64,000 bases of DNA, taken from the IMG/VR virus record IMGVR_UViG_3300038825_001395; one strand, given 5' to 3'. The stretch comes from an uncultured virus (IMG/VR IMGVR_UViG_3300038825_001395) (Duplodnaviria > Heunggongvirae > Uroviricota > Caudoviricetes). Positions 13,923-63,922 of this stretch are shown here, piece by piece. The notes beneath the pieces were generated by a model. The model worked only from the letters and a program-made list of their open reading frames with translations. It was not told where the DNA came from and made no database searches. Each line of letters opens with the position of its first letter. Position 1 is the stretch's first letter. The position numbers and the translations under genes are program-made.

Positions 13923-14945
13923 TTATTCTTCATCATCTTCTTCTATTAGTTGAGCTTCAGATAAACATCCTCTAGCAACTGCTGTATGAGCATCTTCTAT
14001 ATGAATAATTTCTGAAATAGGTATTGGAAACTCATCTTGGTCAAACTGTTCATTAAACACATCCAAGAATCCTTTAACCAATGAAGTTCCACCACCGATA
14101 ACAATAGGAACAGCATTAGGAAAATTAGGAACATTTTCAACACCTTCAAACTGAACCTTTAGGTTAGTCAAAAGATAGTTAATTAGGGCACCATAATAAG
14201 AACGGATAGCGATAAGAACATTAGCCTCATCCGTTTCTTCTTCATAAATATTTTGATAAGTAGCAGAAGATAAGTCAAGTGTAGTTGATGTTTCTTTAAT
14301 ATTAGTTACCTTAGCTTTTGATACTCCTGTATCCATAGCAACATTTTCATCAACCCAATCACCACCACGGCTTACACTAAAAGATAGGGCAGTCATCCCT
14401 TGATACATAACTGCTATGTTACACATACCAGCACCCATTGAGATGGCTACACCAGTTAGTTGAGTATCAACCAACCCTTCATATCCAATCGCAACTGCCT
14501 CCTCTATCTTTTTCACATTGTATCCGTATTGTTCTATTATCGTTCTCAATACATCTTCGTGATATGATACTTCCCTTTTAACATCAATAGGTTTAGATGG
14601 AATGCAATAAACACAAGTTTCTCCATCTTTAGCATCACCCAACAACTCTCCGATTATGGCGTTTAGAACTGGTAAGGCATCTTTCTCTGTAGGATTTAAT
14701 AGACCACTTTTCATCGGTCTTTTAAGTTCGGCTGTTGAGAATATTTGAGCATAGTTGAAAGCGTGTTGTCCAACTATATGAACTTTACCTGCTTTCTCTA
14801 CGAAAGGAATCCCTTGTCGTTTTAACATTCTCTTGACTTGGTTCACCTCCCCATCAACAGTTAAGAATGCATTTCTTTGTTTTTTTACTAGCTCTTCTGT
14901 AGCAGCAATATAGAATGATGTACCACAATCTAAACCTTTTGCCAT
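13923..14945 (-). CDS. Actin-like ATPase (MreB/ParM/FtsA superfamily)
   Basis: Phosphate-1 GLDCGTS, connect-1 IEEAVAIG, phosphate-2 ISMGAGMCNI, adenosine IVIGGGTS, connect-2 AVARGCL. Confidence 0.85.
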   Translation of the reverse strand: MAKGLDCGTSFYIAATEELVKKQRNAFLTVDGEVNQVKRMLKRQGIPFVEKAGKVHIVGQHAFNYAQIFSTAELKRPMKSGLLNPTEKDALPVLNAIIGELLGDAKDGETCVYCIPSKPIDVKREVSYHEDVLRTIIEQYGYNVKKIEEAVAIGYEGLVDTQLTGVAISMGAGMCNIAVMYQGMTALSFSVSRGGDWVDENVAMDTGVSKAKVTNIKETSTTLDLSSATYQNIYEEETDEANVLIAIRSYYGALINYLLTNLKVQFEGVENVPNFPNAVPIVIGGGTSLVKGFLDVFNEQFDQDEFPIPISEIIHIEDAHTAVARGCLSEAQLIEEDDEE

Positions 14946-23679: not shown

Positions 23680-25263
23680 TTACCCCAATAGCCAAGTTAA
23701 GTCTTCTTCTTCATTTTCATTAATTTTTATTTTATATGGATTATGTTTAGGAACATTGTTTGATGTCATTACTGCTGAGTTTCCATTTAAACTTCCAATA
23801 GAACTTACCAAACTACTTTGAAATTCGTTTCTTTCTGATTGAATACGAATCGCAGTATCCCTAATCCATAGTAAAATAGAATAAGACATAACAAGGTCAT
23901 CATTATATCCTTCTAATGCTTCGGTCTTACTATTCTTATATATAAATACAAAAAGTTCATCAATTAAACGAGTTGATTTTATCTTTACCATCTTTTCTCT
24001 GGTATATTCTTCCATCTTAGCAATAATCAATGGTTTAGACTTCATAGTTGTTGTGAAACCTGGTATCTTGTTTCTATCTATTTGTCTATATCTGTTTGTA
24101 TGTTGAACATCTTCATCTACAATAAGATGATTTTTTTCTTGATAAAAAAGATTTTCATATCCTCTATCAATAATTGTTTGTAATGTAGCCCAACCTATGT
24201 TATTGTTTTCCACAACAAGTAGGGCATCATTGTATTTTGTAGCTAACTCAATTAAAAAGTTTCCAAATTCGGTTGTTCCTAACTGACCTTTGTATTCTGC
24301 TACTTGTTCCATTTCTTCTATATCAAATACTTGAGCAGTGCTGTAATCAGTTCCATCTCCTCTAGCAACATCAGCACTAACCAAGTATTTTTTAGCATAA
24401 TCTGGATATCCCCATATCCATAAGTTTCTATCAAACCCACTCTTCTCACTTGGCTCACAACATACATTATCTTTATACCAACCCAATATAAGAGGATCAA
24501 CAACTGAACGACCAGAACTTAAAAAGTCAGCATCACATTCTTGAGCAGCTTTACTAGGTCCTAATATTTTATCTTGCTCATCTCTCCAACTCTGGTCTCT
24601 TTCAGGATGGTCTGTCCAATGAAGTTTGATTGTATTAAATTTATTTGTTCCATCTTTAGCATCCATCCAAGTTTTGTGAAACCAATTACCCACACCATTG
24701 GGTGTTGATATACCAATACATCTACCACCAGTAGCAAGTGTCTGTTGAGCGGCAGTCCAGATAATATCAATCTTATCAATGAAAGCAGCCTCATCAAGTA
24801 TTAGTAGAGACAAAGCTTCAGAACGACCAGCAGACTCATTAGAAGCAATAGCTTTTATCTGACTTCCGTTCTTAAATATAAGTGAAAGTTTGTTGTTTTC
24901 CACAATAGCAGTTTTTAACCAATTAGGTAAACCCTCATACATAATACGGACTTTTGTTACCAAGTTTTTTGCTGTATCTTTTGATGTAGCAATACATAGG
25001 ATGTTTTTATCATTGTGAAATAACATCATCCATAAAGCATAAGCAGCACTTAGGGTTGATATACCTAACTGACGAGATTTTAGTACAACATTATAGTCGT
25101 GTTTCTCAAACTCATCTAATACATCATACTGATAAGGATAAAGTTTAAACTTTATCTTACCTCTTTGTGGATGTTGGATAGTGCAAAACTCATTAATAAA
25201 GTATGATGGGTTTTTAGCACACTTTACATAGTTTTGTTTTATCGCTTGTTTTAAGTTACTCAT
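23680..25263 (-). CDS. gp17: Terminase large subunit (T4 gp17-like)
   Basis: Walker A KSRQLGIST, Walker B LLILDEAAF, coupling ISTPNG, nuclease ADVARGDG.DYS and YNDDLVMS. Confidence 0.97.
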   Translation of the reverse strand: MSNLKQAIKQNYVKCAKNPSYFINEFCTIQHPQRGKIKFKLYPYQYDVLDEFEKHDYNVVLKSRQLGISTLSAAYALWMMLFHNDKNILCIATSKDTAKNLVTKVRIMYEGLPNWLKTAIVENNKLSLIFKNGSQIKAIASNESAGRSEALSLLILDEAAFIDKIDIIWTAAQQTLATGGRCIGISTPNGVGNWFHKTWMDAKDGTNKFNTIKLHWTDHPERDQSWRDEQDKILGPSKAAQECDADFLSSGRSVVDPLILGWYKDNVCCEPSEKSGFDRNLWIWGYPDYAKKYLVSADVARGDGTDYSTAQVFDIEEMEQVAEYKGQLGTTEFGNFLIELATKYNDALLVVENNNIGWATLQTIIDRGYENLFYQEKNHLIVDEDVQHTNRYRQIDRNKIPGFTTTMKSKPLIIAKMEEYTREKMVKIKSTRLIDELFVFIYKNSKTEALEGYNDDLVMSYSILLWIRDTAIRIQSERNEFQSSLVSSIGSLNGNSAVMTSNNVPKHNPYKIKINENEEEDLTWLLG

Positions 25264-25751: not shown

Positions 25752-28700
25752 TTAAAAAAACATCAATCCTGTTATTTGATTTATAGGAGCAAAAGCACCT
25801 GTAAACTTATAAATATTACCATTATATTTAAATACCAATCCTTCAGTTGGAACAATAGCATCAAACCCACCGATAGCATTTAATCTATCTAATTGTATTT
25901 TTAATTTATTTAACTTTTTTAAGTCACCACCACTTCTTATATCGGATATAGCAGCTTTAAGTTTCTTTCTCATATTCTGTACTGATTTTGCTGGATTGAC
26001 GGCTAGCCACCCATCCATATTCTTCATTATCTCAGCACCAACTTCAAAAAATAATTCTTCAAATGGTTTCATATTATCTTTTACCATTCTAGCATGGTCT
26101 AATTTTTCTGTAACTAAAGTCCATTCTAAAAACTTATTATTTTTTATTGTAGCTTTCATATCTCTTATTGAATATGATTTATCAAAGAAAGCCCATCTCA
26201 TTGTAAGTCTTTTAAGAACATTTGCTGGTATCTTATATTTAAATTGTTTAGCAGCATTAAAGATATATTCTTCCCAAAATCTTTGATGATATAATCCAAG
26301 TGTATCATTATCTTTAAGAGCATATTGACTCTGTAATTTAGATAAACGGCCATGAAATTTTTTCTTCATCTTACCAAAGTCTTGATGTTTAGGGACAGTA
26401 ACAAAGTTTGGTTTTGATATTTTATAATGTTTTTGTATATGTTGATTAACTTGTTTTATCATACCTTGTAACATTCTTGCACTATCTTTTGCTTGTCCTA
26501 TTGGTCGACCATTATCATCATATTCAATTGCACCGTGAAAAAGTAATTCTGTAATATCATAGTTGACCACATTCTCACTAGCAGGCCACATCACTTCTAA
26601 ACTCATAAACTTAGAACCATTACCAAAAATCTTATCTTGTTGTTTTTTAGAAAGAGCACCGATTGCTTTTGATAAATCTCTCATCGCATATACAAAAGCA
26701 TCTCGTATAGAACCTCTACCTTTAAATTTATTTTCTACATCTTTTATGGTTAAAGCTGTTTCACCTTTATTTTTAAGATGTCCTTTATTACGAGCAGCAA
26801 TAAGTTTTCCATCTTTGTAACTTATCATTAAGTTTTGACCATCTGTTTTTTCTGTAACATTATCTTCACGATTTAACTGACCACCCAATCCCAACTCTAT
26901 TATCTTTTTTAAATCTTTAAAAGTTAATTCTTTATCATCAAATGGATGATTCATATGTCCGTAGGCTCCGCCCATTAATAATAACTCCTTTCCGTTTCTT
27001 TCTAAATTACTTGTAAGTGAATAAACCTCTTTTACAATATCATATTCATCGTGTTGTTCGTTTCCTCTATCTTGGTCTGTATCAGTTGGTTCTTCTTTTT
27101 CTAATTGGTCTAATGTATTTTTACTATGTTTAAGAACTGACTTTCTTGATTTTTTAAGTTTGTCTGTATATTCATAATCTTGATTTTTTAAAATCATATC
27201 AATATGGTCTAACCAATGATTCCATAATTTACTTCCAACCAAATCTAAATCATTAGCAGCACTTGGAGAAGCTGCTCCAGCAGGTCCGTATGATACTGAA
27301 CCTATTGGACCATTTGGATATTTTGGAATATCAAACTCTTGACTATAGTAGTTTTCATCATCAATTATATTCTTAGCAATCTCCCAACCTAATCTACCAG
27401 CTTCTTTCTCACCCCTAAGTAAGTAAGATTTTAAACTTGATATAAAACCAGGACCATCATCAACCCCATCTGATTGAGTACCTGTGCTTTCTAATAAACC
27501 ACGATAAACCTCATATAGTTTTTTAAACTTATTGGTCATCATATTATACACACCTTTGTCGTAATATCCAAATGTTTTTTTGAAAAACTTTACTTTTTCT
27601 TTATCATCTACTTTTGGATTACCTAACATATCTCGTGTTTTAGTTCCACTTATGTTTCCGACTTGAGGAGCAGTTATAATGTATCCGTGTTCATCAAACC
27701 CTTTCATATCTTTAGTATAAGGTTTAAAATATTTACCACCTAACCTACCAGCATCTTTTCCACCAACAACATAAACTACTGCTGTAGTTTTAGGATCAAA
27801 TTTGTTTAATAAGTTTTTTGCTACATATGGTGACTTTTCCATAACGATACGATTTTTTGGAATACCAACCTTTACCATATGTCTAACTTTTTCTTTAAAG
27901 TTCATAGGATGACGAGGTGGTTTTTTTATATCGGATGTGGTTATGTAAGCCTCATCAACTTGTTTAGACAACCACTTGTATGTAGCAAGATGACCTGAAT
28001 GAAAGGGTTGAAATCTTCCACCAAATACACCAACAACTTTCTTAATGTTTTTTTCTTCCTTCAAATTGGATACACTATCCCCATTATCAACATTAGAATA
28101 TACAACACTTTCTCTATGTAAGTCAAGCGTTTTATTTATTTCTTTTATTCCTCTACCACCCCTATCAAATTTAGTAAATTTTTGTAGCTTACCAAAATGT
28201 TTCTCTTTACTCATCTTATCTTGTTTAGTCCATTTCATCTTATCAAAGACTTTCATTCTCATATGTTGTTTAACTATATAATGAATAGTATCAACATCAC
28301 CACCCATTGATTTTATCCAAGTAGCATATTTCTTTACTAATTGTGCTGAAACTTTCTCGTGTCCATAATGAGTCCAAAAACCTTTTTTCGGATGTAGTTT
28401 AGCAGTAGAGTCTTTTCCTATATCGTGGAATAATGCTGATAAAGCAAAGTCTATGTCACCGGTTTTTAATGCTCTGTTAGTTACAGCGATAGTATGTTTT
28501 AAAACATTACCTTCGGGATGAGCATCTCTTCTTTGGTCATAGTTTTTAAGATTATAAACTCTCTTTTTTAAAGCACTAGGAAGAGCATCATAGATGTCCC
28601 TAAATTTTTTAGGTTTAGGTCTAACTGCTATCTCATCTACTTTTTTATAACCACTACCATAAGGAACTGAGGTGTGTCCTTTCTTCTTCATCTTTTTTAT

Positions 28701-28805
28701 TTTAGAAAGTTTAGAGCCACCCTTGATAGTTCCATCACCAGCAACTATACCCATCTCATCTATGACGGGTTTGGTTATTTCTTCTATTAGTTTTTTTAAG
28801 CTCAT
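25752..28805 (-). CDS. Multidomain protein: HD phosphohydrolase, HxGH nucleotidyltransferase and RNA/DNA-ligase-like nucleotidyltransferase
   Basis: HPEGNVLKHT..FHDIGK..YGHE (HD, CCA-enzyme type); GGRFQPFHSGH..ISGTKTR (cytidylyltransferase fold); EKTDGQN..ARNKG..EGLVFK..K (ligase motifs I, Ia, IV, V). Confidence 0.75.
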   Translation of the reverse strand: MSLKKLIEEITKPVIDEMGIVAGDGTIKGGSKLSKIKKMKKKGHTSVPYGSGYKKVDEIAVRPKPKKFRDIYDALPSALKKRVYNLKNYDQRRDAHPEGNVLKHTIAVTNRALKTGDIDFALSALFHDIGKDSTAKLHPKKGFWTHYGHEKVSAQLVKKYATWIKSMGGDVDTIHYIVKQHMRMKVFDKMKWTKQDKMSKEKHFGKLQKFTKFDRGGRGIKEINKTLDLHRESVVYSNVDNGDSVSNLKEEKNIKKVVGVFGGRFQPFHSGHLATYKWLSKQVDEAYITTSDIKKPPRHPMNFKEKVRHMVKVGIPKNRIVMEKSPYVAKNLLNKFDPKTTAVVYVVGGKDAGRLGGKYFKPYTKDMKGFDEHGYIITAPQVGNISGTKTRDMLGNPKVDDKEKVKFFKKTFGYYDKGVYNMMTNKFKKLYEVYRGLLESTGTQSDGVDDGPGFISSLKSYLLRGEKEAGRLGWEIAKNIIDDENYYSQEFDIPKYPNGPIGSVSYGPAGAASPSAANDLDLVGSKLWNHWLDHIDMILKNQDYEYTDKLKKSRKSVLKHSKNTLDQLEKEEPTDTDQDRGNEQHDEYDIVKEVYSLTSNLERNGKELLLMGGAYGHMNHPFDDKELTFKDLKKIIELGLGGQLNREDNVTEKTDGQNLMISYKDGKLIAARNKGHLKNKGETALTIKDVENKFKGRGSIRDAFVYAMRDLSKAIGALSKKQQDKIFGNGSKFMSLEVMWPASENVVNYDITELLFHGAIEYDDNGRPIGQAKDSARMLQGMIKQVNQHIQKHYKISKPNFVTVPKHQDFGKMKKKFHGRLSKLQSQYALKDNDTLGLYHQRFWEEYIFNAAKQFKYKIPANVLKRLTMRWAFFDKSYSIRDMKATIKNNKFLEWTLVTEKLDHARMVKDNMKPFEELFFEVGAEIMKNMDGWLAVNPAKSVQNMRKKLKAAISDIRSGGDLKKLNKLKIQLDRLNAIGGFDAIVPTEGLVFKYNGNIYKFTGAFAPINQITGLMFF

Positions 28806-51346: not shown

Positions 51347-51511
51347 ATGAAGAAGAAATGTTCTTTTACAATAGATGACCAGCTTATAGAATGGTTTAAG
51401 TTATATGCTAAGGAAGAAAGCACTACTATGAGTGCTGTATTAAATCAATATATTCTTAGTTTAAAACGAGGAACATCTAAACCTAAAAATGTTCTTTATA
51501 CTAACCGTTAG
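51347..51511 (+). CDS. Ribbon-helix-helix (CopG/Arc-like) DNA-binding protein, 54 aa, not in the ORF track
   Basis: MKKKCSFTIDDQLIEWFKLYAKEESTTMSAVLNQYILSLKRG..; GGAG SD at 51334-51337; ATATTTAT motif at 51313-51320. Confidence 0.75.
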   Translation: MKKKCSFTIDDQLIEWFKLYAKEESTTMSAVLNQYILSLKRGTSKPKNVLYTNR

Positions 51512-54500
51512 TTATATATAACCTTAGAAAAACCTTTATCATCTACATTTACAGGTAGTAAATAATCCATAAAGTCTTTGATTGTATCTAAGTGAGATAT
51601 GATAAAAACAGAATCAAATCTTGTTTTTAGATAATCAAAAGCACCTTTCATATTTGATAAGTTGTCCGTATCAAGTGTTCCAAATCCTTCATCTATAACA
51701 AGAAAGTTAGGACTTGGAAGATTAGATACATTAATCAAACCAACTCGGAGAGCAAGAGAAGAAACAAACTTTTCCATACCAGATGATAAACTTAACGGCC
51801 ATTCTTGGTCATCATACTTTATGTATAGGTTTATACTTTTATCTTCACTTGTTATACCTAACTGAAAACCAGCCATCATATGGTCTAATACTGTATTAAC
51901 TTCATTTTCTATTATTGGAAGAGCATCATTTATAATAAGTTGTGGTATCCCATCACGATTAACTAACCTTAAATAAATCTCATAATCCGAAACCTTTTGT
52001 TCTGCCTTTACCAAGTCTTTGATTTCTTCTCCAAGATTTTTTTGATTTGTTTGTTCTATTAAGATACTAGATTCTGTTATAGCTAAGTCTTTTTTGTTTT
52101 CATCTAATATATCACTTGCTATTCTTACTTGAGTTTCTAACTTATTTATTTTTTGTGTTAAGTTATAATTGTGAGCAATAGCAACTTCATTATCTAAAAA
52201 TATTGCTTGTTCTTCGGTAATCTTTTTTAAGGTTGATTGTGTTTGTTCTACTAAAAGTTCTAGTTCTTTTACTTTAGCATGAGTTTTATAAGCATCACCT
52301 TCAACTCTTTTTAAATCCTCAACCATACCGTCATATTTTTGTTTTGTCTTTACTATTGTTTCATCTAGCACAATACTATTTTGTTGTTCTATTAACAATT
52401 GATAACTTATTGTGGCATCACCTAAATCTTTTACTGCTGATTCTTTATCTTTGATTTGATGATCTCCATTTCTTAAACAATCTTCACAATCTTTGTTGTA
52501 ATGATACTTATCAAGTTCTGTTATTTGTTTTTCTAATAAGTCAATAGCCATTTCAACTCTTTCTATTTCTTTTTCTATATCAGAAAGATTGGTTTTTTGT
52601 TTAAGATATTCTTCATGTTTTTTGTTTAGGTCATCTTCATCATATACTTTTATCTGGTCAAATATTTGATTGTAGAGTGGTCTAAGATTTTCTCTATATT
52701 CATTTTCGGAAGCAAGAGTTGATTGTTGTTCTTCTAATTTAGTTGTAGTTTCTTCTATTAGTTTATCAAAATCCAATTCTTTTACATCACCGACATCTTT
52801 TAGTTTTGAGTTTAATTCTACTATCTCTTCTTTAAACTCTTTAATATCAGTTTCTATAGGCTTTATCTTTTGTTCTAACTCATCTTTCTTTTCACCTAAA
52901 TCAACTAAGGTTTGTTCTAACTTACCCATTTTTTGAAATACATTTTTATCTTTGATTCTTTTTAGATATCCTTTTTCATCAGATACATCTTCACGAGCAA
53001 TATCATAAAGTTTATCAAAAAGGTCAATACCCATAAATTGAGATAAAATCTTTTTTCTTTCTGCTTGTTTTTTATCAACAAAGTTTTGTCCGTTGTTTTG
53101 TAGAGAAAGTGATGTAAGAATAAAGTCATCAAATGTCCCTAAGATACTTTTTATTTCTTCATTAGTTCCACTTCCATATTGTGAATTACTACGAGCAGCT
53201 CCACTAAGGTCAATCATCTCATCATTTTCTATAACATAAAACTTAACAGATACAGGACATAGTTTTCTTACTTCGCCTGTTTTGCGACTTGTTCTAACTT
53301 TTAGTTTACCAGTTCGGTGAATAATATAATCAACACCATTTACCTCTAAGGATAGTTTTACCTCAAAGTTTTTTGACTTGTTGTTTAAGACTTCTATAGC
53401 TTTAAATGTTCTACTACAAGTATCAAATATGGTATAAGCAATAGCATCTATTAAAGCTGACTTACCACTATGGTTTGGAGCAACAACACCAACTACACCA
53501 TTTAGTTTAGTAAAATCAACTTTGTTATTTTTACCATAACTAAACATATTATCAAACTCAATATACTTTAATTTCCAATCTACATTTTTTGGTAGTTCAT
53601 TTTTCATACCAATAGATGAGTTTGTAAATTCATTAATATCAAATAATCTTTGTATAGTTTTATCATCTATGGCTGGGTTTTCTAATCTAGCCATTTTATC
53701 TATCAAATTATTTTGAACTTTTAAATCATGAATATCTTCTATTGATATTTTTGTATTAGAATTATTCATTATGTTTTCAATAGAATCTAATTTTTCAAAT
53801 GATATAGATTTAAGTTCTGAATAAGTTTTTCTTAAATCCATTTCTATCAAACGGAGTTTTTCAGCTGATGTTCCTTTATGTTTTATTTTTAAGTTACCAT
53901 ATCTAGGAACAAAGTTCATCTTACTTTTTATTTCATCATCTTCTACACGGATTGTTTTAAATCCATAATCATTTTCTACTTGAACAAACTCGGACTTTCT
54001 TTTTTCTACATCCCATAAAAGAAATCCGTGATCTGGTGCTTCAGCAAAGTTTTGTTGTATTAGTGAACCTGGATACGCAATAGTTTCATCATTATTTAAA
54101 AATTGTCTTTTGTGTATATCACCTAATAAAACTAAATCATAACCATCAAAGTCAATAACATTTACATGTTCATCACTCATAACTAAACCGGTATCAACTT
54201 GAAAGTTTCCAACACCACCATGATAAATAGCAATCTTATGGTCACCATCTATGTCTTTTGCTCTTGGTATATTTTTAGCATTTGGTTTTCCATCTTTTGT
54301 AATATCAAATACAGATAGATGACCGAATTGACAACCACCCATTTCATATACACCTGTTTTTTTCCAAAAATGTATTCTTGGATTTATCTGTTTTACTAAA
54401 TCAACAATTGGAGAAAGAACATCTTCTCTTGAAACATTATTTAAATTACAATCATGATTGCCTGGTACAACCAATAAGTCGGATATATCAGCAAGATTTA

Positions 54501-54708
54501 AAAAGAACTCTGCTACTAATCTTGTTTCTTCAGGTGAGGTGTCTAATTTTCCATGAACAATATCACCACCTATGTATATTAAGTCTGGTTTTACTTCTTT
54601 TAACTTTACATATAATCTATCAAACACATCTCTGTATTCTACAAACCTATGTAGTTTTCTAATGTGAATATCTGCTAAATGAGCAATCTTATTTATCTTC
54701 TTATCCAT
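51508..54708 (-). CDS. Fused SbcD/Mre11 nuclease and SbcC/Rad50 ATPase (T4 gp47-gp46-like)
   Basis: HLADIH, GGDIVH, PGNHD, LGDIHK, YPGS (phosphoesterase); APNHSGKS Walker A, CEDC zinc hook, SSGMEK signature, VIDEGFGTLD, ISH; start probably MDKKINK at 54708. Confidence 0.92.
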   Translation of the reverse strand: MDKKINKIAHLADIHIRKLHRFVEYRDVFDRLYVKLKEVKPDLIYIGGDIVHGKLDTSPEETRLVAEFFLNLADISDLLVVPGNHDCNLNNVSREDVLSPIVDLVKQINPRIHFWKKTGVYEMGGCQFGHLSVFDITKDGKPNAKNIPRAKDIDGDHKIAIYHGGVGNFQVDTGLVMSDEHVNVIDFDGYDLVLLGDIHKRQFLNNDETIAYPGSLIQQNFAEAPDHGFLLWDVEKRKSEFVQVENDYGFKTIRVEDDEIKSKMNFVPRYGNLKIKHKGTSAEKLRLIEMDLRKTYSELKSISFEKLDSIENIMNNSNTKISIEDIHDLKVQNNLIDKMARLENPAIDDKTIQRLFDINEFTNSSIGMKNELPKNVDWKLKYIEFDNMFSYGKNNKVDFTKLNGVVGVVAPNHSGKSALIDAIAYTIFDTCSRTFKAIEVLNNKSKNFEVKLSLEVNGVDYIIHRTGKLKVRTSRKTGEVRKLCPVSVKFYVIENDEMIDLSGAARSNSQYGSGTNEEIKSILGTFDDFILTSLSLQNNGQNFVDKKQAERKKILSQFMGIDLFDKLYDIAREDVSDEKGYLKRIKDKNVFQKMGKLEQTLVDLGEKKDELEQKIKPIETDIKEFKEEIVELNSKLKDVGDVKELDFDKLIEETTTKLEEQQSTLASENEYRENLRPLYNQIFDQIKVYDEDDLNKKHEEYLKQKTNLSDIEKEIERVEMAIDLLEKQITELDKYHYNKDCEDCLRNGDHQIKDKESAVKDLGDATISYQLLIEQQNSIVLDETIVKTKQKYDGMVEDLKRVEGDAYKTHAKVKELELLVEQTQSTLKKITEEQAIFLDNEVAIAHNYNLTQKINKLETQVRIASDILDENKKDLAITESSILIEQTNQKNLGEEIKDLVKAEQKVSDYEIYLRLVNRDGIPQLIINDALPIIENEVNTVLDHMMAGFQLGITSEDKSINLYIKYDDQEWPLSLSSGMEKFVSSLALRVGLINVSNLPSPNFLVIDEGFGTLDTDNLSNMKGAFDYLKTRFDSVFIISHLDTIKDFMDYLLPVNVDDKGFSKVIYN

Positions 54709-55615
54709 ATAACTTTGCCTGTATTGAATCACTAAAACTAGCCGATTCAGTTGAGTTTATTAATGTTGTTATTTTTTCCCAACCCAAATCATTCGGGTCT
54801 TGGTCTTTCGGTAATTTTACTACTTTACTATCTATCCCAAAATCCTTAAAGAACTCTGACATAACATAAGCATCTTTCTTTGCATCATCATCAAGAGCAA
54901 TATAAATTGTCTTAACATTTTTTTCAAAAATCTTTTGTAACAAACTTTTTGATGGTTTCTTACTTAACATCGGTATAGCGTTTGACCTAATAGACATAGC
55001 ATCAAACACACCTTCACACAATATAATTGGTTTTGACCAAGCAATATACCAATCAAATGGTATTACATCTCTTGATACATTTGGGTTTTTATACTTCATC
55101 TTTTCACCGACAAAAGAGCGACCAACAAAATAATTAAGTAATCCCATATGGTCATAACTTGGAATGATTATTCTGCCTTCATATAAACCTGAATCACAGA
55201 AACCTATTTTATATTTTTTTATATCCCAATCAGTAATACCTCTTTTATGTAAAAATGATTTTGCTTGATTACGGTAAATAGATTTACTAACTTTCCAAAG
55301 AGCTTGAAAATCTCTTGGTAAAGATACAATAACCTTTGATTCAGTTTCATCTTTTGATTTACTTGGAGTAAATACTAAATCTTTAAGCTCGGTAAAATAC
55401 CTAGTGTCAGCATTTACTTTTTTAAATAGTGAGTAAATAGAATGACCACCTTGATTACTAACCCAACAATGCCACTTCTGTGATTCTATGTTGACCTGTA
55501 ACTTAGGCTTATAGTGACTAACAAACGGAGAGTAAAACATATACTCATCTGCTTTGGTTAGGTTTTTACTTTTACTATTTAATGTTCTTTCTAATAGATA
55601 AACTAATTTATTCAT
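54701..55615 (-). CDS. dnaG: DNA primase (TOPRIM)
   Basis: FLHKRGI, GRIIIP, KYKNP, LCEGVFDA, ALDDDA, DPNDL; start probably MNKLVY at 55615. Confidence 0.88.
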   Translation of the reverse strand: MNKLVYLLERTLNSKSKNLTKADEYMFYSPFVSHYKPKLQVNIESQKWHCWVSNQGGHSIYSLFKKVNADTRYFTELKDLVFTPSKSKDETESKVIVSLPRDFQALWKVSKSIYRNQAKSFLHKRGITDWDIKKYKIGFCDSGLYEGRIIIPSYDHMGLLNYFVGRSFVGEKMKYKNPNVSRDVIPFDWYIAWSKPIILCEGVFDAMSIRSNAIPMLSKKPSKSLLQKIFEKNVKTIYIALDDDAKKDAYVMSEFFKDFGIDSKVVKLPKDQDPNDLGWEKITTLINSTESASFSDSIQAKLYG

Positions 55616-59997: not shown

Positions 59998-61062
59998 TTA
60001 TTTTAATATTGTTACTTTAGTTTTTTTGTAATTGGATACTAAAAAGTATATGCCACTTGGAACATCAGATGTATTCCAATTGTAATTTTTATTTATAATT
60101 TTTTCTTCAACTAACCTACCATTCATATCATAAATACCAATTAACCCATTAGCTATTATATTAACATTACTATTTGATGGATTAGGATAAGCAGATAATT
60201 TTGGTATTAATTTATTGAAAGTATTTTGGTCTAATACTGATTCTAAAAATGCTATAGCTTGTTGTTGATTACCACCAATCACTATCTGAACTAATCTTAT
60301 TACATCAAGAATATTCATCACACCATCGCCATTTACATTACCAGCTTCATATCCACATTGACTATCATTGTCTCCTAATATAATATCAACTAATATTAAA
60401 ATGTCTGTTAAACTTATAATTAAATCTCCATTTACATCTCCACCAGTCCATATTAAATTATTACAAGCATCACATACATCACCAATCTCATCACCATCCG
60501 TATCTACTTGATTTGGGTTATACCCATCAATACAATTATCATTATCATCAAATATACCATCGGCATCAGTATCTAAAACTAAATTTTCTATTCCTTCATT
60601 TATAGAATTTATTATCATCGTTTGATTAAAACCGGATTCGGAAAGTAATACTTCACCATCACCACCTATGACAATATTATGCGGGATATAACCTGTTCCA
60701 AATAATCCATAGATATTACTAACATCATCTAAGATAGGATATGTTAAACCAAAGGCTGTTCCCCATTCCTCACAACTATAAGGTTGATTCCATTCACTAC
60801 CTATAGCAATCACCTCTAATACTGATTCATCATAATCTTGAAATATATCTTCTGTAAGTGGAGCCTCCACTTGACAACTTGGTCACCAACTGGTAAATAG
60901 ATTTATCCAAACAACCTTATCCCTACCATCGGTATCATAATACCAAGTGCCTTCACCATTTTGACATATAGGAGCAGAGAAGTTATTTACATAATCTCCT
61001 ACTTGATATGTTTGTCCTATTAATATTTGTAATGTAAATATCAGTAATATTATTTTATTCAT
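59998..61062 (-). CDS. Exported selenocysteine-containing redoxin (UxxC) with TSP3-like repeats, dockerin and T9SS-like C-terminal domain, 354 aa
   Basis: ATG 61062 (overlaps the upstream stop), signal peptide MNKIILLIFTLQILIG, ..VWINLFTSW-TGA(60885-60883)-PSCQVEAP.. in frame with ORF 59998-60870; DTDADG..DNC, GDVNGD..DI twice, AYPNP. Confidence 0.85.
60853..60885 (-). promoter_or_regulatory. Bacterial SECIS-like hairpin 3' of the in-frame UGA
   Basis: UGA CCAAGU UGU-C-AAGUGG-AGGCU-CCACUU-ACA; G-containing apical loop begins 16 nt after the UGA. Confidence 0.75.
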
Positions 61063-61450
61063 AAGCTCTCATTTTCTTTTTTATAACTAAAATGTAATTA
61101 TCTATTACATCTGTATTGACTTTATCCTTTTCCATCTTTTCTTTTTTAGCTACCAACTTACCATAAACTTTCTGTAAATCTAAAAGAGATAATGACCTCA
61201 TAGATTTTCTGTAATATAATTTATTGAGAGCTTCATCTTCAGCTTCTGCTCCACGAACTCCAGCAACTGTTGTTACTTTTTCTATCTCATAGTCTTTAAT
61301 AGTAACTTCTTTAATTTCTTCCCACACGGTGTTTTCCCACATGGCATCTAAATCAAGTTCTTCTGTTGTGTCTTGACTAAAACTCAAGTTTAACAGGATA
61401 CTCAGCCAAAATAAAGTTAAGACTATCGTAGGTATAATACCAAATCTCAT
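61055..61450 (-). CDS. Exported / membrane-anchored hypothetical protein
   Basis: Signal peptide ending SFS-QD; VTTVAGVRGAEAE motif; start uncertain (74 nt overlap with the pilin gene). Confidence 0.55.
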   Translation of the reverse strand: MRFGIIPTIVLTLFWLSILLNLSFSQDTTEELDLDAMWENTVWEEIKEVTIKDYEIEKVTTVAGVRGAEAEDEALNKLYYRKSMRSLSLLDLQKVYGKLVAKKEKMEKDKVNTDVIDNYILVIKKKMRAYE

Positions 61451-61796
61451 TATTCATTCTCCTATGATAAATTGCTGGATTACTTAAAATTGATGTTGAA
61501 AACTTCCATTCATTATCAAATAGAGGAAGTCCTTCTGTAAGTGTTATATGATACCCACGAGTTCTTCCAACTAAAGTTAAGGGATTATATGGATATTTTT
61601 CAACTCCATTTACTTCTAATTCATACTCAGCGTATTCTTCTAAATCTTCCCAAAGTTTGTTAATAAACTTTTTTTCTAATTGTAGTAATTCAAGTTCTAA
61701 TTTTTTTTGCATTTTAGGTAATTGAATTACAGAAAGTATTCCTATTATCACAATTACCATAACTAATTCAATCATAGTAAAGCCTTTAGAATACAT
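61377..61796 (-). CDS. Type IV pilin-like protein
   Basis: Class III signal MYSKG|FTMIELVMVIVIIGILS. Confidence 0.85.
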   Translation of the reverse strand: MYSKGFTMIELVMVIVIIGILSVIQLPKMQKKLELELLQLEKKFINKLWEDLEEYAEYELEVNGVEKYPYNPLTLVGRTRGYHITLTEGLPLFDNEWKFSTSILSNPAIYHRRMNNEIWYYTYDSLNFILAEYPVKLEF

Positions 61797-62242
61797 TAAA
61801 TTTCTCCGATTACTTCTTCTTCATAAGATGGGCTATCCTCATCCTCATCAACTATAATTATCATCCGTGTTACAAATCCCGTTTCAGATGTGTCGGATTG
61901 AACATAATAATAAAATGGATTGTTATTAGAATTCATCGGAAGATCACCACTAAACAAATCATTAACCATTCTACCATCTGATAAAACTTGAGCCTTAAAC
62001 TCTAAATCCATTTGATTGTTTTCTGGTTGTGGTGGAAAGTTAGGGTTTCCTATCATATGTCCTTCTTGCCAATACATCATAAATGTTGTTTTAACAATCT
62101 CCATATTTGTGATATTAGATTGTCTTTGTGTAGCAAGAACATTAGATTGGTAGGAGGGGATAGCGAATGACATCAATATCCCCACCAACGAAATAGAAAC
62201 AACTAACTCTGCCAATGTGAAACCATCATTGGAGTTTCTCAT
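61796..62242 (-). CDS. Type IV pilin-like protein
   Basis: MRNSNDG|FTLAELVVSISLVGILMSFAIPSY. Confidence 0.88.
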   Translation of the reverse strand: MRNSNDGFTLAELVVSISLVGILMSFAIPSYQSNVLATQRQSNITNMEIVKTTFMMYWQEGHMIGNPNFPPQPENNQMDLEFKAQVLSDGRMVNDLFSGDLPMNSNNNPFYYYVQSDTSETGFVTRMIIIVDEDEDSPSYEEEVIGEI

Positions 62243-62262
62243 TGGGTTCTCCTTTTTATTTA

Positions 62263-62703
62263 TTAAAGAGCTACCCTTTCACCGATTGAACCGATAGCAG
62301 CATTATCTCCATCTTGAACACCTTTATCATAGTCCCAAGCCCAACGAGTATTATCATTTCTCTGATGGGTAATCTGTAATGTTACTAAGTTATATGTCCA
62401 TTCTCCATCTGTATCTGCATCATCTGTATCAGTAGCATCATATCCAGCAGGAGTTTCTTCTAATCCATCAAATGGATGATCTGGCCATACCTTACGACCT
62501 TCTGAAAATAGTTGTTCCATAGCATAGTTGGATAGTCCAGCTTGTATACTAGCGATTATAGCATCTTCAGCAGCTTCTTCAGCTTTTGTTACAGTTCCAA
62601 GATATCTTGGTACAGCAACTGCTGATAAAATACCTAAAATTATTGTTACCATTATTAGTTCAATTAATGTGAACCCTTTGTTGTCTTTTATTGTGTTAAA
62701 CAT
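62263..62703 (-). CDS. Type IV pilin-like protein (major-pilin-like)
   Basis: MFNTIKDNKG|FTLIELIMVTIILGILSAVAVPRY; strong AAGGAG SD. Confidence 0.92.
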   Translation of the reverse strand: MFNTIKDNKGFTLIELIMVTIILGILSAVAVPRYLGTVTKAEEAAEDAIIASIQAGLSNYAMEQLFSEGRKVWPDHPFDGLEETPAGYDATDTDDADTDGEWTYNLVTLQITHQRNDNTRWAWDYDKGVQDGDNAAIGSIGERVAL

Positions 62704-62714
62704 TTCTGTTCTCC

Positions 62715-63350
62715 TTACGGTTGTAGTTTCTTTTTAAAGTTAGCAGGTGATTCTAAATCAGCCACATAAAGTATTGGTGAATAAGAGGATTGTCCACTTC
62801 CACCACCAGCGATTACTGTGTAAATATAGTGTCCATCCTGAAAAGGTGATTTAACAGCGTTTCCACCAAATTCATTTAGGAACTCTTCAGCTCCAACGGT
62901 TTCGCTGAAAGAACCATCATCATCTGGATCTTCAGCAGTATTGACACTAGCACCCGTTGGCATTGGATTAGCAGGATTTTGTGTTCCAAATATAGAAGCC
63001 CATTTAGATGCTTCTGCACTTTCAAATGTTTGGAATACATTAAGTCCAGCTACCACAGAACTTTCATCTTGGTATCCACCACCATCAGGAACAGATTCAT
63101 TGTATTTAACTTGACCTGGAAATCTTCCACGACCTTCACTAGTTACTTTTTCATTATAAAAGTTATTAGCAGATTTTACAATCTTATCAATATCAGCTAA
63201 TGTCTTTTTTTCTTTAGCACCCTCTCCTACGCCAGAGAACTTAGGTGCAGCAGTAGTAGCGAGTGTCGCCATCATCGCTGTTGTTACAGCGAATTCAGCG
63301 AGTGACTGACCACTTCTACCTTTTAATTTTTTTCTTAGCTTTTGAAACAT
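62715..63350 (-). CDS. Type IV pilin-like protein with an atypical G|QSLAEF site
   Basis: Basic leader MFQKLRKKLKGRSG|QSLAEFAVTTAMMATLATTAAPKF; Glu at +5 and Pro at +22 as in pilins. Confidence 0.75.
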   Translation of the reverse strand: MFQKLRKKLKGRSGQSLAEFAVTTAMMATLATTAAPKFSGVGEGAKEKKTLADIDKIVKSANNFYNEKVTSEGRGRFPGQVKYNESVPDGGGYQDESSVVAGLNVFQTFESAEASKWASIFGTQNPANPMPTGASVNTAEDPDDDGSFSETVGAEEFLNEFGGNAVKSPFQDGHYIYTVIAGGGSGQSSYSPILYVADLESPANFKKKLQP

Positions 63351-63547: not shown

Positions 63548-63922
63548 TTAAAATACATCTTCTGCTAATACATCATCTATAGCACTTTTTATTTCTTTAT
63601 TACTGGCATCTATCTCACCATCCATATCACCTTTCCAAGTTTCTTTCTTAGAACCATCATAGAAAAGAGCCATAGATGGAAAGTTTCTAAATCTAAGTTT
63701 CTTTATTACTTTTGGTGCTTCTTCACTTTTAACATAAAGTATTTTACAATCTTGATATCCCTTTACACCCTTTATAAGTGATTCATCAAAATCAGCGTCT
63801 TGCCATTCTGATGTAAATATGGCTACGACTATACCACCATTAATTTTTTCTTTAAAGTTCTTATCATTTATTTGTCCGTATGACACAGACAAAAATAATA
63901 ATAAAGTAAATATAAATCTCAT
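63548..63922 (-). CDS. Exported thioredoxin-like protein lacking CxxC
   Basis: Signal peptide; INDKNFKEKI..VVAIFTSEW (Trx N-motif), then QDAD instead of CxxC; RFRNFPSMALFYDG cis-Pro loop. Confidence 0.65.
   Translation of the reverse strand: MRFIFTLLLFLSVSYGQINDKNFKEKINGGIVVAIFTSEWQDADFDESLIKGVKGYQDCKILYVKSEEAPKVIKKLRFRNFPSMALFYDGSKKETWKGDMDGEIDASNKEIKSAIDDVLAEDVF

Follow-up and report, generated by a model that had tools for sequence, protein, structure and literature searches.

In the fdhF gene of Escherichia coli, UGA is recoded in a SelB-dependent manner, and a bacterial selenocysteine insertion sequence (SECIS) hairpin lies within the open reading frame (ORF), directly 3′ of the UGA. 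Thiol-disulfide oxidoreductases of the ResA/TlpA/CcmG type (DsbE; PDB 4nmu, 1st9, 2b1k) work with cysteine (Cys), are membrane-anchored or periplasmic, and take part in cytochrome c or copper-protein maturation. The selenoproteome of the Global Ocean Sampling (GOS) data contains two UxxC families, 'Prx-like 1' (pfam00578) and 'Trx-like', and the word 'phage' is absent from its text (Zhang and Gladyshev 2008, PMC2398784). The viral selenoproteins named in a 2021 review on recoding (PMC8310308) are two glutathione peroxidases of poxviruses, from molluscum contagiosum virus and fowlpox virus. Phages are mentioned in a 2021 marine survey (PMC9402790), which had few or no viral GOS sequences outside the ribonucleotide reductase II, plastocyanin, and Cu-Zn superoxide dismutase families. 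Here we describe a redoxin gene with an in-frame UGA and a SECIS-like hairpin in a stretch of 64,000 nucleotides (hereafter the window) of the uncultured Caudoviricetes record IMGVR_UViG_3300038825_001395 in IMG/VR. We consider it very probable that this is a host-derived accessory gene whose UGA-60 is decoded by the SelB and the selenocysteine (Sec) tRNA of the host, giving a full-length Sec enzyme that would be exported by the general secretory pathway and the type IX secretion system (T9SS).

Like the fdhF SECIS, the phage element is a hairpin of the coding region that follows the UGA directly and has a G in its loop, but it is much shorter, has the loop AGGCU (GGC if the A-U pair closes) and no evident bulged U, and its binding by SelB is a prediction; of the fdhF-like SECIS proposed in a preliminary description of this DNA, the geometry (a hairpin 3′ of the UGA) stands, and the likeness is limited to it. 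With ResA/TlpA/CcmG, the product shares the fold and the F-x-x-W-C-x-x-C-x-x-E-x-P motif, and it differs by Sec, a T9SS sorting domain, additional surface-type domains, and its carriage by a phage. The GOS families are likewise marine pfam00578 proteins of thioredoxin fold, with Sec as the first residue of UxxC, Cys homologues, and a bacterial SECIS within the ORF; they were treated as bacterial, whereas the phage family adds thrombospondin type-3 (TSP3)-like, dockerin-like, and T9SS-tail domains, and an overlap with 'Prx-like 1' reads is possible. The poxvirus enzymes, too, come from host-derived selenoprotein genes and rely on the host Sec machinery, with the fowlpox SECIS lying within the coding region, but they belong to eukaryotic hosts, the SECIS/SBP2 system, and another enzyme family, while the present carrier is a bacteriophage with a bacterial SelB-type element. 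Full-text literature searches, which covered journals outside subscription, found no published phage selenoprotein, and neither phages nor viruses are mentioned in the main texts of deep-Sep (a prediction tool of 2025) and BSepDB (a database of 2026). We see here a selenoprotein of known kind whose carrier, a bacteriophage, is new, and whose family is wide, conserved, and systematically mis-annotated. It is likely that, in a whole clade of uncultured marine T4-like phages, one capture from Marinimicrobia supplied a selenoprotein gene, the first in prokaryotic viruses.

The in-frame UGA and its conservation

The minus-strand frame runs from ATG 61062 to TAA 59998 with TGA 60885-60883 as its sole interruption, and translation with TGA as Sec (U) yields a protein of 354 residues in which U60, in the context VVWINLFTSW-U-PSCQVEAP, is the only non-standard position. 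Read-through translation thus bears out the preliminary description, which had placed the start at ATG 61062, upstream of the listed start 60870, and a TGA at codon 60 of an otherwise open frame. The ORF listing made with translation table 11 contains a 290-aa ORF from GTG 60870 and a separate 59-aa ORF in the same frame (60883-61062), and public gene calls split the gene into the same two parts. In a scan of the window, 50 or more open codons on each side were found around a single minus-strand TGA, that at 60885, and the 9-mer GGAGGCTCC occurred in one copy against 0.05 expected.

The read-through protein matched Pfam AhpC-TSA with 41.8 bits (cut-off 26; residues 21-138) and Pfam Redoxin with 28.1 bits (cut-off 26.6; residues 20-145). 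In the alignment to ResA (4nmu; E = 1.3e-11), NLFTSW-U-PSCQVEAP stands against NFWGTWCKPCEKEMP and U60 falls on the first Cys of CxxC, as had been proposed for the W-C-x-x-C site of TlpA-type proteins. The AlphaFold2 model (mean predicted local distance difference test score (pLDDT) 76, with 85-93 across most of the redoxin domain) has U60 at the beginning of helix 61-75, which puts the W59-U60-P-S-C63 site at the helix N-terminus, and its best Foldseek matches were ResA, CcmG, and DsbE (target TM-score 0.77-0.83). Profile (PF00578/PF08534), fold, and a W-C-x-x-C-type site are hence all those of a TlpA/ResA/CcmG-like oxidoreductase, with Sec in place of the first Cys. The peroxidatic Cys of peroxiredoxins lies in the motif P-x-x-x-T-x-x-C; a peroxiredoxin proper (AhpC/Prx) was rejected, since the site N-L-F-T-S-W-U-P-S-C is of the CxxC type, and among solved structures ResA and CcmG match best. 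A scan against PHROGs assigned the protein to no family.

Relatives comprised 279 database proteins (E <= 1e-3), 330 metagenome stretches (80 retained), 2 IMG/VR contigs, and 20 loci in species-representative genomes, the latter in most cases labelled as Marinimicrobia, Neomarinimicrobiota, or Fidelibacterota (the titles of several gave no phylum, and one was a Flammeovirgaceae bin). At the DNA level, the codon at the site was TGA in 100 of 100 motif instances with 39-91% identity, and TGT, TGC, or TGG in none; these instances are the window plus 98 of the 102 related loci, with L098 counted twice, and they include 68 distinct versions of the 48 nt considered. Four loci lack the standard motif; of these, L102 reads W-M-U-G-A-C, also with TGA, while L099-L101 have lost the redox motif. 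Together with the database proteins P0152, P0163, P0166, and P0167, the last three loci keep the same architecture without either redox residue (e.g., 'DADNFTSRTEAP') and are probably non-catalytic paralogues. Family proteins are conserved on both sides of the UGA, with Q17, Y19, G22, D23, V25, F28, C33, N35, W40, G46, F56, and W59 invariant on its 5′ side.

More distant homologues were sought among 1.84 billion representative sequences, which gave 5,069 matches at E <= 1e-3. Among the 150 matches listed, 34 aligned sequences span the site and have Cys (26), 'W' (3), or a lost motif (5) at the position of U60; we read the three 'W' residues as TGA in gene calls made with genetic code 4. As 26 of the 34 have Cys, the pattern is that of a classical Sec/Cys pair. 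Homologues with either TGA or Cys had been expected at this position, and both were found: TGA in every motif instance and in L102, Cys in most of the distant representatives and in the ResA structures.

Phages with recoded stop codons exist, and it could be supposed that a standard residue such as Trp or Cys is inserted at the UGA by means of a suppressor tRNA of phage or host, or of a reassignment like that of codes 4 and 25. Some database translations indeed show W at the site, and the unseen remainder of the phage genome could encode a suppressor tRNA, but we regard this explanation as very unlikely. Stop codons of the 55 window ORFs were TAA (42), TAG (9), and TGA (4), the latter in the ORFs ending at 25260, 38620, 56108, and 57600, so that the count agrees with the normal stops named in the preliminary description. 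No other long frame of the window is interrupted by TGA, and the one internal TGA in ~20,300 window codons is located exactly at the catalytic Cys. TGA also terminates 32 of 96 complete family genes, so that the same codon would be read in two ways within one gene. Because TGA ends these family genes and 4 of the 55 window ORFs, genome-wide recoding is excluded, and a stop-codon-recoded phage (code 4/25-like) was rejected, there being one in-frame TGA while TGA is still used as a stop. The database proteins themselves come in two forms, i.e., as 268-298 aa starting downstream of the TGA, or as full-length sequences that show 'W' at position 60. Among these 'W' forms, several overrun the true TGA stop as '...KW...' (e.g., '...KWLTTKS'), the mark of code-4 gene calling. 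Eight of them (P0011, P0039, P0041, P0047, P0051, P0054, P0056, and P0062) are TGA = W translations with a 'WW' active site and spurious C-terminal extensions. Further arguments against a standard residue are the lack of any tRNA in the window, the presence of the same codon and hairpin in chromosomal Marinimicrobia genes of genomes that have a Sec system, and the inactivation of the CxxC site that a change of its nucleophile to Trp would bring about.

The hairpin 3′ of the UGA and the protein architecture

Directly 3′ of the UGA, the hairpin UGU-C-AAGUGG-AGGCU-CCACUU-ACA begins its upper stem ~11 nt past the codon and its loop 16 nt past it (Table 1). Its conservation was examined in a gap-free alignment of 69 sequences (68 distinct) covering 48 nt from the TGA. 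Under the named structure, 79.4% of the cells pair, compared to 68.9% after shuffling (a value reached by 0 of 500 shuffles) and 38.9-48.5% in slid controls, while the covariation score amounts to 0.335 against 0.159 for shuffled alignments (again 0 of 500) and at most 0.091 for slid controls. Of the two G-C pairs that close the loop, one is GC in all 68 rows and the other in 65 of them. Pair 17-27 is found as C-G (45), U-A (10), and A-U (9), with column 27 being the synonymous third position of a Pro codon, and pair 16-28 occurs in six pair types.

Synonymous codon choice was counted in the distinct coding sequences (CDS) of the family (n = 92). E66 is GAG in 88 of them; E71, a conserved residue close by, is instead GAA in 85 of 89. 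A67 is GCT, likewise in 88 (entropy 0.26 bits, other conserved four-fold codons having mostly 1.1-1.7 bits), and P68 is CCG in 56, a codon that is rare at other Pro positions. Since the synonymous codons GAG and GCT are frozen, selection acts on the hairpin at the RNA level. The G-containing loop at 16 nt from the UGA that had been noticed in the window is thereby accompanied by covariation and frozen codons in the family, and it is these two signals, rather than stability, that support a SECIS role. A different arrangement was seen in L026, L028, L047, L068, and L072, where GAG-GCU-CCN is replaced by GAA-GCA-CCU and a GGAGGCA motif is found 15 nt further 3′.

Were the TGA a true stop, the locus would be a decaying pseudogene or two ORFs, of which only the 290-residue part from GTG 60870, without an active site, would be made. 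Most database entries (268-298 aa) are called in this way, the phage is viable without the gene, as attested by a contig that lacks it, and the hairpin is thermodynamically unexceptional. We nevertheless give this explanation only a slim chance of being right: codons 5′ of the TGA are conserved at the protein level, the Pfam redoxin domain (residues 21-138) straddles the TGA, the codon has been kept in 100 of 100 instances down to 39% identity without another stop or a frameshift, and both covariation and codon freeze are found immediately 3′ of it.

Apart from the redoxin domain, the predicted product contains an N-terminal hydrophobic segment and three C-terminal modules (Table 1). The N-terminus was modeled by AlphaFold2 as a helix (residues 2-13) with low confidence. 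The Asp-rich stretch, which probably binds calcium, has low pLDDT, and the relative L030 matches TSP_3 (E = 1.6e-4). A beta-sandwich (residues 290-352) was predicted over the sorting domain.

Table 1. Positions of the candidate selenoprotein gene, its recoding elements, and its domains in the window
Feature	Position	Strand	Details and basis
Full candidate selenoprotein gene	59998..61062	(-)	354 codons + TAA
In-frame UGA, codon 60, probably read as Sec	60883..60885	(-)	first position of U-P-S-C
SECIS-like hairpin	60853..60876	(-)	lower stem UGU/ACA, bulged C, upper stem AAGUGG/CCACUU, loop AGGCU
Hairpin loop AGGCU	60862-60866	(-)	
Invariant core GGAGGCUCC	60860-60868	(-)	
Hydrophobic N-terminus, residues 1-17, presumed signal peptide of the general secretory pathway	61012..61062	(-)	judged by eye
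Thioredoxin-fold redoxin domain, residues 21-138, TlpA/ResA/CcmG-like	60649..61002	(-)	Pfam AhpC-TSA, ResA 4nmu, Foldseek
Asp-rich stretch, TSP3 repeat-like, residues ~163-200	60463..60576	(-)	PF02412 in precomputed annotation of relatives
Dockerin type I-like domain, residues 208-257	60292..60441	(-)	Pfam Dockerin_1, 23.0 bits (cut-off 22.9), borderline
T9SS C-terminal sorting domain, residues 292-350	60013..60189	(-)	Pfam Por_Secre_tail, 42 bits (cut-off 27)
Limits of the present/absent cassette	59999..61070		stretch skipped by L106 and by read joints

Phage context, cellular homologues, and Sec machinery

The window belongs to a T4-like myovirus. Its genes of this type lie on one strand and include, by Pfam, Gp23 (E = 5e-75), Portal_T4 (Gp20; E = 6e-74), Peptidase_S77 (prohead protease), Terminase_6N (TerL), sheath, gp19 (tube), and baseplate families, and primase and Mre11/Rad50-like proteins are encoded as well. 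Identity of the capsid protein amounts to 50-51% with its counterparts in Microcystis and Flavobacterium myophages and to 39% with that of Rhodothermus phage RM378. To the left of the redoxin gene extend 60 kb of co-linear T4-like genes, and to its right a pilin gene cluster, upstream of the gene, is common to 12 independent contigs (L001-L012), two of which (L003 and L004) also share the downstream neighbours; contiguity with phage genes, questioned at the outset, is thus supported. All 12 more divergent loci that were scanned had PHROG matches such as ThyX, PhoH, PNK (polynucleotide kinase), MazG, and HNH. The gene junctions are bridged by contigs from two DNA sequencing runs of different studies, one of 1,152 nt (run X1) without any difference to the window and a single one of 4.6 kb (run X12) with 5 differences, all outside the gene, which gives the TGA the assembly support that had been asked for. 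Exact sampled words of the stretch were found in 14 DNA runs of 6 studies, any of which may be the source sample. The assembly across the gene is sound. No match was obtained by tblastn (E <= 1e-5) in the GenBank phage collection, from which the genome records of the window itself were possibly left out.

A near-identical phage without the gene was also recovered. The IMG/VR contig L106 is 99.4% identical to window positions 63950-61071 and resumes at 60017-59323 (98.3%), with the joint at its positions 2869-2890, where 8 other letters are found; as it jumps from 61071 to 60017, it lacks exactly the redoxin gene. A joint from 59998 to 61071 with 8 letters between, of which the sides measure 30-40 letters only, is also present in contigs of run X1 and of the RNA-library run X15. 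In X1, the gene-less form has a depth of 17.7 and the gene-bearing contig one of 7.69.

The cellular copies are ~490 aa long, with ~130 extra residues ahead of the T9SS tail, and their synteny in Marinimicrobia (L083-L098, e.g., L093:1-6479) is conserved and unlike that of the phage copies: Gln/Glu-tRNA synthetase, a protein of ~436 aa without assigned function, a 171-aa Cys-redoxin, and DUF6029 are followed by the Sec-redoxin. L098 has a second, shorter Sec-redoxin paralogue. Sixteen genome loci (L083-L098) have the standard motif, and the cellular copies inspected or aligned among them contain the same GGAGGCUCC core; for this reason the phage element should fit the SelB of the host. A quick maximum-likelihood tree with a midpoint root was built from 89 distinct rows of 93 complete genes, leaving out 7 incomplete genes and 4 duplicates. 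All 72 metagenome and viral rows formed one clade (SH-like approximate likelihood-ratio test 99), sister to the cellular rows L084, L087, L088, and L089, and at least 72 distinct gene versions are thus sampled in the phage clade. This topology fits a single capture, and the gene was probably taken up once from a Marinimicrobia chromosome and then diversified in a marine clade of T4-like phages. That host (Marinimicrobia) DNA was instead joined to the phage by mis-assembly or mis-binning has a practically negligible probability, for although cellular homologues exist, the gene is close to the window end, and the same phage occurs in a gene-less form, the flanks are conserved together with the gene in independent contigs (on both sides in L003 and L004, upstream in L001-L012), the X12 and X1 contigs (4.6 and 1.15 kb) bridge the junctions, exact words recur in 14 DNA runs of 6 studies, the cellular copies have another length (~490 aa) and another conserved synteny, and the phage copies make up their own clade.

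Genes of the Sec machinery were searched in 5 Marinimicrobia metagenome-assembled genomes (MAGs) with a chromosomal homologue. Matches over the cut-off were obtained for selB and the adjoining selA in all five, for selD in four, and for tRNA-Sec in three, and SprA_N, of the T9SS translocon, was present in four. The sel genes sought in the predicted host are thus found in the group to which homology points. The selD gene of this clade (L103, L104, and L105, in the MAGs G003, G002, and G005) is itself interrupted by TGA, at SHGAG-U-ACKIGP, and would be a selenoprotein gene. GC-rich hairpins also follow the UGA in these selD genes; they give no extra support to the phage element, because only a short GC stem and a loop G are common to both and the GGAGGCUCC core is missing. 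In a related fragment of 23.7 kb (G001), neither the redoxin protein nor tRNA-Sec had a match, nor had tRNA-Sec in the 13-kb record of the related phage L001, which is uninformative on the full phage genome.

Several neighbours of the redoxin gene and other window genes were also noted. N-methylation motifs of type IV pilins occur in three genes of the pilin-like cluster at 61377-63350 (-), directly upstream of the redoxin gene, and a fourth pilin-like candidate lies at 62715-63350 (-). The 124-aa product of 63548-63922 (-) has a hydrophobic N-terminal segment and matches thioredoxin weakly (E = 8e-4); no CxxC is visible in it, and it may be a second exported thioredoxin-fold protein of the phage. 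Within the structural gene block, a 340-aa actin-fold protein at 13923-14945 (-) matches Pfam Volactin over its full length (E = 4e-72) and has a weak match to MreB. A single chain of 1,074 aa (51508-54732, (-)) joins phosphoesterase (Mre11-like) and ATPase (Rad50/SMC-like) domains, and another protein of 1,017 aa (25752-28805, (-)) has HD and cytidylyltransferase-like domains.

Probable decoding by the host and its implications

A number of observations weigh against decoding of the UGA as Sec in a gene captured from, and expressed in, Marinimicrobia. The hairpin has a folding energy of -12.5 kcal/mol (z = -0.43), 65 of 200 shuffles fold equally well, and the stability of the relatives' hairpins is likewise unremarkable compared to shuffles. 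RNAalifold returned no consensus structure from the 69-sequence alignment, and the Rfam search gave no family match, only chance-level matches to snoRNAs and miRNAs. The GGAGGCUCC core is absent in 4 of 92 distinct CDS (L026, L028, L068, and L072) and in the incomplete L047, all of which keep the TGA, and the alternative hairpin predicted in this subgroup is weak. None of the 55 window ORFs of at least 90 aa was a sel gene in the Pfam scan, and ARAGORN detected no tRNA in the window, in agreement with the earlier statement that selA, selB, selC, and selD are absent from it. The most likely host, Marinimicrobia (Fidelibacterota), is suggested by homology alone, the direction of transfer is unproven because the tree is a quick one with a midpoint root, and the divergent loci were scanned against PHROGs alone, so that cellular neighbours would escape flagging. 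Given a near-identical phage without the gene, and a redoxin in only 2 of 40 viral loci that hold a homologue of the upstream gene, the redoxin gene is a dispensable accessory cassette. The RNA-library runs X15 and X16 cover the gene in parts (one X15 contig spans 60650-60985), and neither transcription nor read-through is provable from such contigs.

Even so, none of the checks that were run refuted the proposal that the phage borrows the host Sec machinery for an exported redox enzyme, and together they support it. During infection, the SelB of the host with Sec-tRNA(Sec) would bind the small GC-clamped hairpin 3′ of the UGA, with its GGAGGCUCC core and covarying stem, and Sec would be inserted in place of termination. 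The phage would contribute only the mRNA, while SelA, SelB, SelD, and tRNA-Sec would come from the host. The predicted product, 354 residues long, is a TlpA/ResA/CcmG-type thiol-disulfide oxidoreductase destined for export, with Sec as the nucleophile (U60-P-S-C63). Its signal peptide would take it across the inner membrane, and its C-terminal sorting domain would then let it pass the outer membrane through the T9SS of the host. At or beyond the cell surface, it would act as a Sec-dependent disulfide reductase or exchanger; such a surface or extracellular enzyme could keep or alter the redox state of the envelope in infection, and it may act together with the neighbouring pilin-like genes of the phage. 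Sec insertion, the identity of the host, the route of export, the substrate, and the benefit to the phage are what we infer for this system.

A phage-borne gene equipped with a SECIS would mean that phages can carry, and depend on, host recoding signals. The gene also hints at Marinimicrobia as the host group, for which we know of no cultured phage-host system. It further points to a blind spot of annotation, as the family is stored in databases in the form of truncated proteins (268-298 aa) or code-4 'W' artefacts; if the favoured reading is true, standard phage annotation systematically hides selenoprotein genes. The expression of a phage gene would then require the Sec-decoding machinery of the host, which would make this machinery a marker of host range. 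In the course of infection, phages would make use of selenium as a trace element, which would link its availability in the ocean to viral infection. Finally, the exported enzyme and the adjacent pilin-like cluster may remodel the redox state of the surface of the infected cell.

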